DNA of 10,097 bases. Source: Candidatus Micrarchaeota archaeon (GTDB lineage Archaea > Micrarchaeota > Micrarchaeia > Norongarragalinales > Norongarragalinaceae). Below, piece after piece: positions 1,089-8,535 of the stretch; position 1 is the first letter of the stretch; the number at the start of each line of letters is the position of its first letter. The stretch lies in contig JBBIMI010000029.1 in NCBI GenBank assembly GCA_037444485.1, positions 1 to 10,097 on the forward strand, read 5' to 3'. The notes beneath the pieces are model-generated. The model did no database searches. It saw only the letters and a program-made list of their open reading frames with translations, and was not told where the DNA came from. Made by a program: the position numbers and the translations under genes.

Positions 1089-1200
1089 GCCGGAGTGGCA
1101 GAACGGCAATGCGCCAGCCTTGAGCGTTTTTAAAGCAAGTAAGGCACAGAGAGCTGGTTCCCGTCCAACGGGATTGAGAGTTCGAGTCTCTCCTCCGGCG
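1089..1200 (+). tRNA. tRNA-Ser(TGA) with a 27-nt anticodon-loop intron (about 1125-1151)
   Basis: Acceptor stem GCCGGAG/CTCCGGC with discriminator G1200; anticodon stem CCAGC/GCTGG; loop CT-TGA-GA after removing 27 nt; long variable arm TCCCGT-CCA-ACGGGA; T arm GAGAG-TTCGAGT-CTCTC; no encoded CCA. Confidence 0.95.
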
Positions 1201-2219: not shown

Positions 2220-3020
2220 ATGAGAATGAATGCCGGAAAATTGAATGAAAAATCGGAGTTACTGGTTTTAGGCGATTTTCACGCTGCTACTCGCGAGAAA
2301 ACGCGAGAGTTAAAGAAAAAAACGCTGGCGGTAATCAAACAAGAAAACCCGAGTCACGTTGCTTGCACTGGCGACTTCGACCACCCGAGCATGGCGCTCG
2401 CGTGGAAGAAAATAGAAGACGAGTTGAAAAAAATAGGTAAAACTGTTGCGACTGTTCCAGGCAACCATGACCACGCTAACTTGAAAGGACTCAAAATAAC
2501 GTCTAAAACCTTGTACGAACAAAAACTTGAAGACAACTCTACGCTGCAAAAAGAATTCGAGAAAAACGTTGAAGCAAGCGAGTACGTTGATTCGCTGTTA
2601 AAGTCGAAAGTTAGAGTAATACGGTTTGAAAAAACGCGGTTCATGGTCGCGCACGGCGCTCTAGACGGCAGTCTCGAAAGCTATCCGTTCGCCCCGCTTG
2701 AACTAAGAGTTTTATGGTTTCGACTCGATAGTTCCCTCGACCACCGCGCGAACTTCGAGAAACTCGTTAAAACGAATTGCCGCGTGCTCTTACGCGGACA
2801 CGACCACGCGCCACAACACGCTTCCTTCAACCCAGCCAACGCTTGGCAAAGCATTAAAATCAATGCGCCCGACATTGAAAGCAAAACTTTTGAAATGGAT
2901 TTTAAAATGGATAAATGCGCGTTTCACACGGTCACCGCAGGCGCGTTTTACGACGGTTGCTACGCAATCATCACGCCCATGCGCGGCGGTTTTAAAGTCA
3001 CTTTCAAGAAAATAAAATAA
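2220..3020 (+). CDS. Calcineurin-like metallophosphoesterase
   Basis: All five motifs are present in order: GDFH, GDFD, GNHD, AHG and GHDH. Confidence 0.9.
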   Translation: MRMNAGKLNEKSELLVLGDFHAATREKTRELKKKTLAVIKQENPSHVACTGDFDHPSMALAWKKIEDELKKIGKTVATVPGNHDHANLKGLKITSKTLYEQKLEDNSTLQKEFEKNVEASEYVDSLLKSKVRVIRFEKTRFMVAHGALDGSLESYPFAPLELRVLWFRLDSSLDHRANFEKLVKTNCRVLLRGHDHAPQHASFNPANAWQSIKINAPDIESKTFEMDFKMDKCAFHTVTAGAFYDGCYAIITPMRGGFKVTFKKIK

Positions 3021-3056
3021 GATACTATTGGAACGCACAGTCAAAAAACGCGTAGT

Positions 3057-3094: not shown

Positions 3095-3383
3095 GACGTA
3101 TTACTCGTGTTACCAGTACTTATTAGTCGTGCTGGACAGCAGTTAGTCACGCAGGACAGCAGTCGTACGAAGTAACAGTTAGTCGTGCGGTAATTTTTGC
3201 ATAAATTTTGCATAAAATACGCGAAGGAATTCTTTCTCTTGAAACATTTACCGTGAAGAGAAGGACAACAACGCGGTTAACCATAAACTATATTCAGTAC
3301 ATTCACAGTATTCACGTCGGGAAAATATAAAAAACGAAGAAAACAAACGCAAGGCGATTGAAAGCAGTTGAAAGGCGATTAAG

Positions 3384-4331: not shown

Positions 4332-4760
4332 GTGGGAAAAGAATTAAGTGAAGAAACTAAGAACGAGTTGATTGAATTCCAGCAATTACAGCAGCAAATC
4401 CAGATTCTGCAAATACAGCGCCAGCAGACGCTCGCACAAATCGCGGAGTTGGATAAAGCGCGCGAGGAAGTCGAGAAAACTATTGATGCAAACGCGAAAT
4501 TATACCGCTTTGTCGGCTCGATAATCGTTCCAAAAAAGAAAGACGAACTCTTGAAGGAATTGAGTGAAGAACGCGAGTCGCTTGACGTGCGCGTAAACGC
4601 GTTCAAGAAACAGGAAGATAAGTTAAGAGAGCGTTACGACGCGCTGCGCAAGAAACTCGAACAAAAACTCTCGTCAATGCAATCCGCGCAAGCGCAGCCG
4701 GCGCCGGCTGCACTGAAAACCCGCGGCAAAACAATTAGTGAAGGCGCGACCGTCGCGTGA
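4332..4760 (+). CDS. pfdB: Prefoldin beta subunit, with a low-complexity C-terminal extension
   Basis: Gln-rich coiled coil (FQQLQQQIQILQIQRQQ), beta-hairpin LYRFVGSIIV, then a second coiled coil. GTG start after GGAGTTGGTG. Confidence 0.9.
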   Translation: MGKELSEETKNELIEFQQLQQQIQILQIQRQQTLAQIAELDKAREEVEKTIDANAKLYRFVGSIIVPKKKDELLKELSEERESLDVRVNAFKKQEDKLRERYDALRKKLEQKLSSMQSAQAQPAPAALKTRGKTISEGATVA

Positions 4761-4883
4761 GCAACCGCAAGGTGCTTGGCGTAACTGCTTGACGCAAGGT
4801 TTTTAATTCTTGACGGCGTTTATTACCAGTTTGCGGTTAGCAAACATTGTTTTAAAAAAAACACTTTTTTGTGGGGGGATTGA

Positions 4884-6125
4884 TTGGTAAAGAAAGGCAA
4901 TTTTTTGTTTACGTCGGAGTCAGTCACTGAAGGTCACCCGGACAAAATCATTGGATGAAGTTCGAGGTTTTCGTTTGATGAAGTTTGAAGTTTGTTTTCG
5001 TTTTTTCATCCTTTGACGTCTAAAATCTGTGACCAAGTAAGCGACGCGATTCTCGACGACTTGCTTCGCCGAGACCCAAAATCGCGTGTTGCAGTCGAAA
5101 CGCTTACAACCACTGGTTTAATAATGGTTGCAGGCGAGGTGACGACGAACGCTTACTGCGACATTCCAGGCGTCGTGCGCCGCACCCTCAAAGAAATCGG
5201 TTACACGAATCCGGAGTACGGGCTCGATTACGCGGACTGCGCGGTTCTAGTCTCGATTCACGAGCAAAGCCAAAACATTTCAGTCGGCGTCACCGAGACA
5301 AGCGTGCACGAGCAGGGAGCAGGCGACCAGGGAATGATGTTTGGTTACGCTTGCCGTGAAACGCCTGAATTAATGCCTTTACCGATAATGCTTGCTCACA
5401 AGCTCACCATGCGCATGACTGAAGTGCGCAAGAAAGGCATCCTTGAGTGGGTGAGGCCGGACGGCAAGTCGCAAGTCACAGTCGAGTACAGCGACGGCAA
5501 GCCTCTTCGCGTCGACACCGTCGTAATCGCTGTGCACCACAATCCAGAGGTTTCCAACGAGCAAATCCGCGAAGACGTGATTCAACAAATCATTAAGCCG
5601 GTTTGCGGCGAGTACCTCGACGCGAACACGAAGTTTTTCGTTAACGCCACCGGAATTTTCGTGGTTGGAGGGCCTGAAGCTGATTCTGGAGTTACAGGCC
5701 GCAAGATCATCGTCGACACTTACGGCGGCATGGGGCGCCACGGCGGCGGTTGTTTCAGCGGTAAAGACCCGAGTAAAGTCGACCGCAGCGCTGCTTACAT
5801 GGCTCGTTACATCGCGAAGAACGTGGTCGCGGCAGGGCTGGCGGACGAGTGCGAAGTGCAACTCGCTTACTCGATTGGAGTCGCGAAGCCAGTATCGATT
5901 TTCGTGAATACTTTCGAAACGAACAAGATTCCGGAAGAAAAAATTGTTGAACTAATCCAAAAACACTTTAAAGTCAAGCCAGCTGAAATCATTAAGGAAC
6001 TCGACCTACTGCGCCCGATTTACAAGAAAACCGCTGCTTACGGACACTTCGGCAGGCAAGACCCAGACTTTACTTGGGAACGCGTCGACAAAGCGGAATT
6101 GCTGCGCAAGGAAGCAGGACTATAA
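4884..6125 (+). CDS. metK: S-adenosylmethionine synthetase (bacterial/eukaryotic-type MAT), interrupted by a 78-nt insert; 387 aa if spliced
   Basis: TTG at 4884, after a G-rich RBS, gives [21 protein letters not shown]. The same frame resumes as [11 protein letters not shown] and contains [40 protein letters not shown] and AAYGHFGR. The ORF-track start at 4992 lies inside the insert. Confidence 0.96.
4946..5023 (+). other. Putative archaeal BHB/BHL-type mRNA intron in metK (78 nt)
   Basis: Two in-frame TGA stops (4956, 4986). The central helix GGAC 4940-4943/GTCT 5018-5021 is followed by AAA on each strand. Cutting after the second A of each restores GAC AAA ATC TGT. Inner stem GGATGAA/TTCATCC; exon-exon stem GGTCAC/GTGACC. 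Confidence 0.75.
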
Positions 6126-6138
6126 GAAACAAAAAATT

Positions 6139-6230
6139 AGGGAAAAAGAAAAGAAACAAGAAAAAAACAAAAAAAAGAAACAAGAAAAAGAGAACAAAAA
6201 AAACAAAAAAAAGAAACAAGAAAAAGAAAG
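6139..6230 (+). repeat. T-free A-rich low-complexity tract with a 31-bp direct repeat
   Basis: AAAAAAACAAAAAAAAGAAACAAGAAAAAGA at 6161-6191 and 6197-6227. Confidence 0.75.
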
Positions 6231-6301: not shown

Positions 6302-6598
6302 TCAGTGGCCCCAGATTACGGTACGCGTTGACTTGAACATGCGTCCGTCAAGTAGTTTGAATTGCTGGTAGTAGTACATGGAAGCGAAGAATGCGGGAAG
6401 CGCGATTATCGGCGCGTTAAACAAGCCCCAAACGCCGACTGCTAGGCCGACGATAAAATACAAGCGGTACTTGATGTGGTCCTTCCACAACGGAATGTAC
6501 TTTACTAAGTAATTGTAACGCGTGTCAGCAGCTAGCCAAGGCGCCTTCGTTTCCGCAACAACGCTTGAAACCTGCACTCCGCTTCCCAAATCCTTCAT
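6302..6598 (-). CDS. Small hypothetical membrane protein (two-helix hairpin), paralogue E
   Basis: 98 aa, ATG start. Motif TRYNYLVKYIPLWK is followed by a hydrophobic hairpin. Flanked by low-complexity intergenic DNA. Confidence 0.8.
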   Translation of the reverse strand: MKDLGSGVQVSSVVAETKAPWLAADTRYNYLVKYIPLWKDHIKYRLYFIVGLAVGVWGLFNAPIIALPAFFASMYYYQQFKLLDGRMFKSTRTVIWGH

Positions 6599-6771
6599 TC
6601 TTTAAAACACCCGAATTTTTCAAACTCTCTCTTTTTTCTTTTTTCTTTTTCAAAAGCTTCCTTTTTTTCAAAAATTTTTTCTTTTCCAATTCTTTCAAGA
6701 TTTTGTTTTTCCAAGTTTCAATGTTTTCTTTTTTTCAATGTTTTCTTTTTTCCAAAGTTTTCTTTCTTTCC

Positions 6772-6848
6772 AAGGTTTTTTCTTTTCCCAAAAGAAAAAA
6801 GCTTCTTTCTTTTCCAAGGTTTTCTTTCTTGTAAAGAAAGAAAAGCTT
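6772..6848. repeat. Two adjacent copies of the cluster's repeated hairpin
   Basis: AAGGTTTTTTCTTTT-CCC-AAAAGAAAAAAGCTT (6772-6804) and AAGGTTTTCTTTCTT-GTA-AAGAAAGAAAAGCTT (6816-6848). The second overlaps the stop codon of gene D. Confidence 0.85.
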
Positions 6849-7293
6849 ACACTGTGTAATACATTGCTTTTCCTTTGAACCATTCTAGGGACCAAGCGTC
6901 GTTGAGTAAGCGCTCGCTCCAGAAATGACCAGTCAAGTACGCGAATATTGCTGCGACGTAAACACTGAATCCTAAAGTGATTACTGTGAGCAGGAAAAAA
7001 ACGATTGCAAGAAAATAGGCTCTGTAAACCGTCCCTAAATTGCCTTCGCGCATGTCGCTGTTAAACCACTCGCTGAGAATGTTGCCTCTCGTCTTGACTT
7101 CCATGGTGTGGACGGGTTGGTCTTTGCCTGGGTGCATCGTGCCAACGCTAGCCATTGGAACGAACAAGTGTTCTGCGCGTGGCTCGCCGTAACCGTCACT
7201 CGCGTTGCTTGCGCTCGCTGGCTTTATGGCGCCGTTCGCCACGAGTGCTTTCACTTCATTAATGCTTGCGTTCTTGTTCAAAACTAGTTTCAC
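6847..7293 (-). CDS. Small hypothetical membrane protein, paralogue D (148 aa)
   Basis: Likely GTG start at 7293 (MKLVLNKNAS...) after GAGTGAGA, which avoids overlap with gene C; the ORF track extends it to 7374. Motif TRGNILSEWF is followed by a hydrophobic hairpin. Confidence 0.78.
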   Translation of the reverse strand: MKLVLNKNASINEVKALVANGAIKPASASNASDGYGEPRAEHLFVPMASVGTMHPGKDQPVHTMEVKTRGNILSEWFNSDMREGNLGTVYRAYFLAIVFFLLTVITLGFSVYVAAIFAYLTGHFWSERLLNDAWSLEWFKGKAMYYTV

Positions 7294-7307
7294 TCTCACT
7301 CTTTTTT

Positions 7308-7520
7308 TTAAATTATTTTCATTACTATCGCGCTGTACAACAGTGACGCTAACACTATCGCGTAAATCATCCAATCCGGCAGGATGAACGAGGTTTTCGA
7401 CATCGCGGCTTCAAAAGACACGGGCCGGTCTTGAATGTGGACAATGCCGATTTCTTCAAGCAACGCCATGAACTGCGCGCTCAAGTGACTCGGACCCCTC
7501 AAATCACTCCAGAAACCCAT
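7308..7520 (-). CDS. Small hypothetical protein with a single C-terminal transmembrane helix (gene C, 70 aa)
   Basis: ATG start after GGTGTAGAAA. C-terminal WMIYAIVLASLLYSAIVMKII. It fills the space between the upstream low-complexity spacer and gene D. Confidence 0.72.
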   Translation of the reverse strand: MGFWSDLRGPSHLSAQFMALLEEIGIVHIQDRPVSFEAAMSKTSFILPDWMIYAIVLASLLYSAIVMKII

Positions 7521-7547
7521 TTTCTACACCATTTTTGTTTTTTTTCT

Positions 7548-7648
7548 TTTTCCACTTCTTTCTTTTCCACTTCTTTCTTTTTCCACTTCTTTCTTTTCCA
7601 CTTCTTTCTTTTCCAAGGGTTTTCTTTCTTTCCAAGAAAGAAAAGCTT
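7548..7648. repeat. 15/16-bp tandem repeat (4 copies) followed by the repeated hairpin
   Basis: CCACTTCTTTC at 7552, 7567, 7583 and 7598. Hairpin AAGGGTTTTCTTTCTT-TCC-AAGAAAGAAAAGCTT at 7615-7648. Confidence 0.88.
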
Positions 7649-7650
7649 TT

Positions 7651-8052
7651 TTAGTCTATTAATACTAGTGACCTGTGTTTTCCGAATTTTGTTACTATGA
7701 AATTACACCACCACGCTAAGTCAGCGTGCCTGGCCGCGAGCGCGATCATTAGTAACGCGCCGGGCGCGAAGGCGTTCAGCGTTAGAATGCCGCCTGCAAA
7801 AAACAGTGCTGCTTTAAACGTGTTCGCGTAACGCATTTTGTAAAAATCTATGTATTCTGCCAAGTAATCCCAACGCTTGTGCATCTTCATGGTTGGGGGA
7901 ACGTGAGCAGGGTAATCTACAGCAACAAAGCTAGTCATGCCTGTGCCGTCAACTGCGCGTTGCTGTTCCTCCATTCCTCGGCGAACTTGCTGGTCTAACG
8001 GCGCAGTGTTCGGCGCGGAAATTGTTTCAATCGTTTCAATGCTTCCAGCCAT
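7651..8052 (-). CDS. Small hypothetical membrane protein, paralogue B (133 aa)
   Basis: ATG at 8052 after GAGTGG (MAGSIETIET...); the ORF track's 8085 start runs through the low-complexity spacer. Motif KRWDYLAEYIDFYK is followed by a hydrophobic hairpin. Confidence 0.8.
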   Translation of the reverse strand: MAGSIETIETISAPNTAPLDQQVRRGMEEQQRAVDGTGMTSFVAVDYPAHVPPTMKMHKRWDYLAEYIDFYKMRYANTFKAALFFAGGILTLNAFAPGALLMIALAARHADLAWWCNFIVTKFGKHRSLVLID

Positions 8053-8082
8053 TTTTTTCCACTCTTTTTTCGTTCTTTTTTT

Positions 8083-8140
8083 CAAGTTTCAATGTTTTCT
8101 TTTTTCCAAGGTTTTTTCTTTTCCTAAAAGAAAAAAGCTT
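8083..8140. repeat. Repeated hairpin element after gene A, sharing sequence with 6712-6804
   Basis: CAAGTTTCAATGTTTTCTTTTTT (also at 6712), then AAGGTTTTTTCTTTT-CCT-AAAAGAAAAAAGCTT at 8108-8140. Confidence 0.88.
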
Positions 8141-8145
8141 TTTTT

Positions 8146-8535
8146 TCAAGTGCCTTCCAGCAAGTACCTTTTCTTCAAGAGTTTGGTTATGTAGAATCCT
8201 CTGCGGACGTGTTCGCCGTACCACCAGCCTGCAAGCAGTGCAGCACCGCCAGCAAGCCATGGTTGGTTTGCGAAGAAAAGCCAAATCGCGCCTGCGCCTG
8301 CAAGCGCTGCACCGACTCGCGTTAATTGCCAAGCGCGCCATGCGCTGATGTTGTTGTTTAAGAACTCTTGACGCGTGGTGACTTTGATGACTGGTTTGCC
8401 TTCGCTTGCTACAGGCAAAAACATTTGAGTTTTACGCCAGCCGCTAGCGCTACTCGCATTGCCGCTGTTTTCAGTCTCGCCACTAAACCGCTTTCTGTCA
8501 GCGTTGACTACGCGCATTACTTCACGCAGTGACAT
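8146..8535 (-). CDS. Small hypothetical membrane protein, paralogue A (129 aa)
   Basis: ATG start after AGGCGAG. Motif TRQEFLNNNISAWR is followed by an Ala/Gly-rich hydrophobic hairpin and a basic tail. Confidence 0.8.
   Translation of the reverse strand: MSLREVMRVVNADRKRFSGETENSGNASSASGWRKTQMFLPVASEGKPVIKVTTRQEFLNNNISAWRAWQLTRVGAALAGAGAIWLFFANQPWLAGGAALLAGWWYGEHVRRGFYITKLLKKRYLLEGT

Follow-up and report, generated by a model that had tools for sequence, protein, structure and literature searches.

The stretch analysed here, called the window throughout, is the whole of contig JBBIMI010000029.1 (10,097 nt; coded C29) of the Candidatus Micrarchaeota assembly GCA_037444485.1 (coded G000, with relatives coded in the style of G001 and metK loci as L004-L033), and it carries on the plus strand a metK gene for a bacterial-type S-adenosylmethionine (SAM) synthetase that is interrupted within its active-site motif. 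Exon 1 (4884-4945) begins with a TTG start codon at 4884, or possibly at 4905, and ends in GAC AA, of which the terminal AA are the first two bases of the catalytic lysine codon. A predicted intron of 78 nt (4946-5023), containing two in-frame TGA codons, then splits GHPDK from ICDQ, and exon 2 (5024-6125) supplies the remaining A of the lysine codon, continues as ICDQ and ends in a TAA stop at 6123-6125, its product matching the S-AdoMet_synt N, M and C domains of Pfam. The first-pass annotation of this DNA described 78 extra nucleotides with two TGA codons in an otherwise intact metK, and the frame of 4884-6125 bears this out, because translation from 4884 reopens as ICDQ and remains open to the terminal TAA. 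Excision of 4946-5023 produces an open reading frame (ORF) of 1164 nt and 387 amino acids (aa), whose product is 75% identical over 379 aa to the MetK of an intronless relative with 0 gaps across the junction; because a stop follows shortly after the 5' site, the unspliced mRNA would give only a 24-residue peptide. An assembly artefact had also been raised as an explanation of the insert. A Logan contig from run X1 shows 0 differences from the window across 4700-5700 at a depth of about 20; as X1 is possibly the source sample, this match excludes assembler error rather than serving as an independent sampling of reads.

Around the insert, the plus-strand RNA contains every pairing that had been proposed for it: a central helix with AAA following each strand, an inner stem and an exon-exon stem. 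The outer, exon-exon helix is formed by GGUCAC (4932-4937) and GUGACC (5029-5034), which are complementary over all 6 nt (100%). The central 4-bp helix, H, pairs GGAC in exon 1 (4940-4943) with GUCU in the intron (5018-5021) through one G.U and three Watson-Crick pairs. Its 5' strand is followed by the 5' bulge AAA (4944-4946; predicted cut 4945|4946), an A.C mismatch (4947/5017) and the mismatched inner helix, h' (4948-4960 with 5004-5016), whose core of 12 nt (4948-4959/5005-5016) is 83% complementary and which closes a 43-nt loop region. On the other side, the 3' splice site lies in a loop (5022-5028; predicted cut 5023|5024) in which AAA and then AUCU stand opposite CC (4938-4939). Within the intron, a tandem duplication occupies 4948-5003, with a 23-nt unit at 4948-4970 and 4971-4993 (83% identity) and the sequence GTTTTCGTTT at both 4967-4976 and 4994-5003. 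The 6-nt direct repeat AAAATC occurs at both borders (4944-4949 and 5022-5027), so that seven cut registers would yield an identical mRNA and the window alone leaves the junction unfixed.

The comparison with relatives provides the principal evidence on the nature of this insert. Exon 2 was searched for in 41 genomes (G000 and 40 relatives), 32 of which matched, and the GHPDK/ICDQ junction was readable in 29 loci (L033 starts too late, and the matches in G007 and G019 are partial). An interruption at the same site is found in nine of these 29 loci, namely the window and eight of the 28 relatives, the other 20 being contiguous. The inserts measure 78 nt in the window, 38 in G010, 36 in G008 and G014, 35 in G031 and G016, 34 in G035 and 33 in G004 and G015, the window intron being the largest because of its 23-nt-unit duplication and the repeated GTTTTCGTTT. 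Those of 34, 35, 35 and 38 nt break the reading frame and hence are not translated insertions. In all nine loci exon 1 retains a start codon and the conserved peptide, both exons are intact, and the differences among the SVTEGHPD codons in alignment A1 are all synonymous. A stop codon lies 2-5 codons into the intron in every copy (L004, L005, L006, L008, L014, L017, L021, L022 and L024), so that unspliced mRNA would in each case give a peptide of about 20-25 residues. In G007, by way of a side observation, a single open frame of 778 aa (C107:1478-3772) holds two metK matches, to exon-2 residues 1-106 and 102-360, that are separated by about 1.2 kb, a pattern suggestive of an intein or of some other in-frame insertion elsewhere in the gene.

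Common to all nine interrupted sequences is an order of elements in which GGAC is followed by a 3-nt bulge, a hairpin, GUCU, a second 3-nt bulge and then AUH UGY, with all four central pairs formed in every case. The hairpins of the eight relatives begin right after the bulge and stop right before GUCU, and their sequences vary between genomes. In alignment A1, all 11 pairs of h' are altered on both sides; the covariation score of 0.357 compares with a shuffled mean of 0.158 and is reached by 0 of 500 shuffles, and 88.9% of the pairing cells are paired as against 30-43% when the partners are slid. An alignment of relatives' metK for covarying inserts at this site, which had been suggested as a check, is therefore favourable, with such inserts in eight of 28 relatives. 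A covariance model, R2, built from the eight relatives' inserts only, matches window positions 4920-5049 at 78.7 bits, with 45 nt placed as a loop insertion and three non-standard pairs, and scores 12.9-52.9 bits on 19 intronless metK loci. Further, the Pro-Asp codons read CCGGAC in all nine intron-bearing alleles and in 4 of 19 intronless ones, and this fixed CCGGAC is what the central helix requires. A GAATGA or GGATGA core recurs in five of the copies and hints at their common descent.

The relatives also fix the junction. It had been proposed that the rule for archaeal tRNA splicing endonuclease (EndA) gives exactly GAC AAA ATC, and this proposal stands in its outcome, although not on the evidence of the window, in which seven registers are equivalent. 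In G014 the 5' bulge reads AAU, so that exon 1 ends at or before GACAA, and in G010 the 3' bulge reads ACA, so that exon 2 starts at or after the last A of ACA. Together, these two variants leave only GACAA|AAUC, which places each cut immediately 3' of the second base of its bulge, and only this register restores the lysine codon in both genomes.

With 12-nt flanks, an outer helix, a 2x7 loop, GGAC:GUCU, a 3-nt bulge and a hairpin make up the minimum free energy (MFE) fold in five of the eight relatives; with a short flank the H-pair probability is 0.73-0.96 in most relatives, about 0.2 in G014 and 0.40-0.46 in G016, and the 5' bulge is closed and of 3 nt in all eight. In the window, the fold with a bulge-helix-bulge (BHB) type of motif lies 0.5 kcal/mol above the MFE, with an H-pair probability of about 0.33. 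The strict hBHBh' motif, which consists of two closed 3-nt bulges on opposite strands with a 4-bp helix between them and a further helix beside each, is absent, as a 7x2 loop contains the 3' site and A.C follows the 5' bulge of the window. What is present is the relaxed motif (HBh', or bulge-helix-loop, BHL), with invariant GGAC/GUCU and with h' directly after the bulge in all eight relatives. The open loop at the 3' site, AAA AUCU facing CC, amounts to a disrupted 3' bulge and places the motif in the relaxed, BHL-like class, whose forms are described in the accessible part of PMC5829648 as having a central 4-bp helix and one bulge with its adjoining helix, the other cleavage site lying in a loop. 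An Rfam scan of the window at E <= 1 returned tRNA only, with no ribozyme and no known intron family.

The host genome (961,727 bp in 58 contigs, estimated 95% complete) encodes both enzymes that such splicing would require. Its EndA, on contig C2, has 388 aa with two nuclease domains in one chain and matches the epsilon2 EndA of ARMAN-2 (PDB 4fz2) at E = 6.8e-128 over residues 13-388, conserving Tyr160-Lys161 of the ARMAN-specific loop and the catalytic Tyr236, His251 and Lys282, residues that, according to the portion of PMC12397907 consulted, are required for cleavage of BHB as well as BHL substrates. By its sequence, then, this is an epsilon2-type, broad-specificity EndA that should be able to cut relaxed motifs, and the earlier expectation that the motif is relaxed and would need such an endonuclease agrees both with the 7x2 loop of all nine loci and with the enzyme type. 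An RtcB ligase is encoded on contig C30 (PF01139, 496.6 bits). The tRNA complement includes intron-containing genes: in the window itself, a 112-nt tRNA-Ser(UGA) (1089-1200, plus strand; Rfam 46.7 bits) with a 27-nt anticodon-loop intron was missed by default ARAGORN and found with introns allowed, a setting that gives 29 tRNAs in the whole genome, 20 of them intron-containing, some of which may be spurious calls. As for the synthetase, the archaeal-type methionine adenosyltransferase (MAT; PF01941) has no match in the genome and PF02773 has one, the window metK, so that the interrupted gene is the only SAM synthetase found in this 95%-complete genome. The 103-nt stretch and a model, R1, each have one match in the genome at E <= 10, which indicates that the insert does not belong to a repeat family.

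Taken as a whole, these data make it probable, with a rough probability of 0.85, that the metK pre-mRNA of this archaeon, a Micrarchaeota-like member of DPANN, contains a tRNA-type intron of relaxed BHB (BHL) form at positions 4946-5023. The model proposes that GGAC at the end of exon 1 would pair with GUCU near the 3' end of the intron to form the 4-bp central helix, on one side of which the intron hairpin would stack while the short exon-exon helix would close the other. The epsilon2-type EndA may then cut two bases 3' of each helix strand (4945|4946 and 5023|5024), RtcB may join the exons to give GAC AAA AUC (Asp-Lys-Ile), and the intron would be released, probably as a circle. The cutting and joining of this metK RNA we infer from the anatomy of the insert, from the way it is conserved and covaries in relatives, from where the junction falls and from the fact that the genome encodes both enzymes; the original suggestion of an mRNA intron in a SAM-synthesis gene gains the support of covarying same-site inserts, a suitable EndA, an intron-containing tRNA in the window, a single-copy insert and no other MAT gene found.

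Several observations weigh against this interpretation. The plain MFE fold of 4920-5045 has an ordinary energy (z = -0.76) and does not contain the BHB, the 3' arm being paired in it with a competitor, the duplicated arm GAUGAA (4977-4982). The central helix is invariant and so lends no covariation support of its own, and the outer helix, with 94% of its cells paired, is constrained by coding and shows no compensatory change. In none of the nine loci is the 3' site a closed 3-nt bulge, its place being taken by a 7x2 internal loop, and the window copy is the least canonical, with the A.C mismatch beside the 5' bulge and two U.U mismatches. In addition, the relatives are kin, and counts across them are not independent.

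The alternative that best survives, although an improbable one, is that the intron family is real and the 78-nt copy is decaying, such that it splices poorly or not at all and metK is becoming a pseudogene. This copy is the only one that combines the A.C mismatch beside the bulge with a competing duplicated arm, and its H-pair probability is below that of most relatives. However, G014 and G016 have similar or lower values, the BHB-type fold is no more than 0.5 kcal/mol from the MFE, the exons are undamaged and give a spliced product with 0 gaps, and the 95%-complete genome yielded no other MAT gene. It is still less likely that metK was killed by insertion of a DNA element resembling a miniature inverted-repeat transposable element (MITE), with AAAATC as a 6-bp target duplication and nothing spliced, even though the flanking direct repeat and the inverted-repeat arms would accord with such an event. 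The first-pass annotation had named a multicopy MITE alongside another intact MAT gene as an observation that would tell against its intron reading; instead, G000 holds a single copy of the insert (E <= 10), neither G010 nor G014 has the direct repeat intact, the two exons are preserved in nine genomes with nothing but synonymous change in exon 1, and a search for a second MAT gene brought none to light. Programmed translational bypass, for which phage T4 gene 60 is the precedent, would have the ribosome take off at AAA AUC and land on AAA AUC 78 nt downstream, and the window does offer the same codons for take-off and landing, a hairpin and a stop that closely follows the take-off site. This scenario is nevertheless hardly credible, as exon 1 of G014 reads GAC AAU and has no lysine take-off codon, the landing side of G010 reads ACA AUC, and the host has a complete enzymatic route for BHB splicing. 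Finally, a translated insertion of 26 residues with TGA as a sense codon, to which the divisibility of 78 by three might point, or an artefact of assembly, has a negligible chance of being correct, given the frame-shifting inserts of relatives, a location within the invariant GHPDK-ICDQ motif, the presence of the insert in nine independent assemblies and the identity of the Logan contig to the window.

A second gene of the same genome presents a similar picture. A Pfam search led to two inserts in rtcB (C30:2925-4321), at 2998-3048 (51 nt) and 3126-3160 (35 nt), which fall within the conserved motifs MPDGHEG|YGFPIGG and GGVGY|DINCG. In the first, H is AAGG/CCUU and the bulges are AUA and GAA; in the second, H is GGCU/GGCU and the bulges are ACA and CGG. 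In each, a long hairpin follows directly after the 5' bulge. Removal of both inserts creates a single open frame and restores ...MPDGHEGYGFPIGG...GGVGYDINCGVR..., and in the second the same second-base cut rule gives an unambiguous TAC|GAC junction. As rtcB is itself split by BHB-type inserts, the ligase for such splicing would need splicing. A scan of the whole genome that combined the BHB rule with the joining of frames reduced 242,656 structural hits to 10,366 frame-joining and then 309 strictly filtered ones, and these are mostly intergenic hairpins and low-complexity spacers, in which signal is not separable from noise. As an observation apart, the motif GAAAACCTTGGAAAAG forms the hairpin of rtcB intron 1 and resembles the units of low-complexity spacers in the window.

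The distribution of the metK intron is scattered. Model R1, applied to 151 genomes sampled at class level, detected 43 metK sites, of which seven are of intron length, all within the order of the window (families f1, f2 and f8), and 36 have the 52-nt intronless length, including all 21 matches outside the order; an unrelated intron at the metK site could escape this model. The covariance-model search replaced open-frame length as the detector of introns, a proxy that had been applied to 401 genomes of the phylum and was found unreliable, as G010 has the intron and yet a 419-aa open frame. A MetK tree of 28 rows (L016 and L033 left out) recovers the genera. The intron label on it requires nine changes, at least six of them forced by well-supported branches, and is no more clustered than shuffled labels, and both states occur within each of the genera g2, g5, g6, g9 and g10. 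Such a scattered pattern within genera implies that the intron was precisely lost many times, gained repeatedly at this one site, or both.

LAGLIDADG homing endonuclease genes stand beside metK in some of these genomes. Immediately upstream and on the same strand, Pfam identifies one in G016 (L014:613-1446) and one in G008 (L021:582-1412), which are 62% identical and the second of which terminates a few bases from the metK start; a different LAGLIDADG gene lies upstream in divergent orientation in G014 (L024:2706-3548), and another is directly upstream of metK in intronless G003 (L020:1914-2630). A profile made from the LAGLIDADG proteins of G016, G008, G014 and G000 and run against all frames of L004-L033 matched only those three loci and that of G003. 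The gene is thus beside metK in three of nine intron-bearing and one of 20 intronless loci, a count taken from 1.5-kb flanks, some of them cut by contig ends, in genomes that are kin; the association is suggestive and not shown. Upstream frames at L005:294-1385, L008:426-1415 and L022:790-1476 were considered as divergent endonucleases and rejected, as the region is matched in many loci with an opposite-strand HTH-CBS gene, and they are probably antisense frames. The window has no LAGLIDADG gene by Pfam or tblastn, nor by the profile search, which covered about 1.5 kb on each side of the site; thus no endonuclease gene lies inside or beside its intron, which like the rest of its family (33-78 nt) holds no ORF, and the neighbours of metK are a prefoldin gene upstream and small membrane-protein genes downstream. 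Elsewhere in the 0.96-Mb genome there are nine LAGLIDADG matches (among them C42:799-1347, C12:22419-23306, C12:14205-14450, C2:61951-62184, C6:3693-3884 and C14:10892-11439), some in intein-like frames of 781 and 1180 aa, some in free-standing frames of 170-225 aa, including two in tandem on C12; among the neighbours of the free-standing genes no interrupted gene was recognised.

A tentative and rather doubtful proposal is that the metK mini-intron provides the 'immunity' in a homing element of two parts, the other part being a free-standing LAGLIDADG gene. In this scenario, the endonuclease would cut intronless alleles within the invariant GHPDK|ICDQ coding sequence, the mini-intron would break its target, and gene conversion would spread the intron and the endonuclease gene jointly. 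One or the other might be lost afterwards, and the window would then hold an orphan intron that has outlived its endonuclease and grown by internal duplication. If true, this would be a form of 'collaborative homing' built on a protein-spliced BHB intron, and would account for the location of such introns, the two in rtcB among them, in the most conserved motifs of core genes in these archaea.

Downstream of metK, low-complexity spacers that are A-rich or T/C-rich (6130-6230, 6630-6850, 7540-7630 and 8050-8125), with recurring units such as CAAGGTTTTCTCTTTTC, separate four small minus-strand genes (6302-6598, 6847-7374, 7651-8085 and 8146-8535) whose predicted products end in hydrophobic stretches and have no Pfam match.

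Comparison with known systems places the metK intron, as read here, among enzyme-spliced archaeal introns. The cbf5 pre-mRNA of Crenarchaeota (Desulfurococcales and Sulfolobales) reportedly contains such an intron, as described by Watanabe in 2002 and Yoshinari in 2006. The metK case differs from it in the host gene, where the catalytic lysine codon of GHPDK is interrupted, in the DPANN, Micrarchaeota-like lineage, in an epsilon2 EndA in place of a heterotetramer and in a far patchier distribution that varies within genera; furthermore, cbf5 splicing was demonstrated by experiment, whereas that of metK is deduced from sequence. The two are alike, as far as the accessible text of PMC2738675 (Yokobori 2009) describes the former, in being short BHB-type introns in coding sequence, often with a relaxed motif, in a broad-specificity host endonuclease and in a lineage-specific distribution with losses, and in that same text cbf5 is the only confirmed case of archaeal pre-mRNA splicing, others being only predicted. 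With the BHL-type pre-tRNA introns of ARMAN-2 (Candidatus Micrarchaeum acidiphilum), as partially consulted accounts present them (PMC12397907, PMC5829648), the metK intron shares the epsilon2 type of EndA and a substrate class defined by a central helix and a single good bulge, the remaining site being in a loop. The metK substrate, in contrast, is an mRNA that has no tRNA body to aid recognition. BHB introns of archaeal rRNA and tRNA can carry LAGLIDADG homing endonuclease genes. They resemble the metK intron in a highly conserved site, a patchy distribution suggesting mobility and LAGLIDADG genes, here at some relatives' loci; unlike theirs, the metK-associated endonuclease gene is free-standing, lies outside the intron and is absent from the window. 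A further parallel is F-CphI, a free-standing homing endonuclease encoded beside the intron-containing psbA of cyanophage S-PM2, where, according to the part of PMC6083498 that was available, the endonuclease gene likewise adjoins a host gene that has, at a conserved position, an intron lacking an endonuclease of its own. However, that intron is a self-splicing group I intron of a phage, whereas the present one would be an enzyme-spliced BHB intron in an archaeal chromosome, accompanied by an archaeal enzyme with no known cleavage specificity. Literature outside subscription journals yielded no report linking S-adenosylmethionine synthetase with the bulge-helix-bulge motif, and none on mRNA introns in DPANN, Micrarchaeota or ARMAN, only papers on tRNA, rRNA, enzymes and group I introns. 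The proposed mechanism is the known EndA/RtcB route; the novelty lies in the gene that hosts the intron, in the lineage and in the type of enzyme.

Under the interpretation of the metK insert as a relaxed BHB intron, both the sole SAM-synthetase gene and the splicing ligase gene of this genome depend on the tRNA-splicing machinery. The supply of SAM and the production of RtcB would then be dependent on EndA and RtcB activity, a possible regulatory or bootstrap loop. Gene callers will mark such essential genes as broken or truncated, and metabolic reconstructions of DPANN archaea will wrongly score them as missing. In addition, the presence and absence of the intron within genera, together with homing endonuclease genes at some loci, provide a tractable case in which to study the movement of BHB introns.

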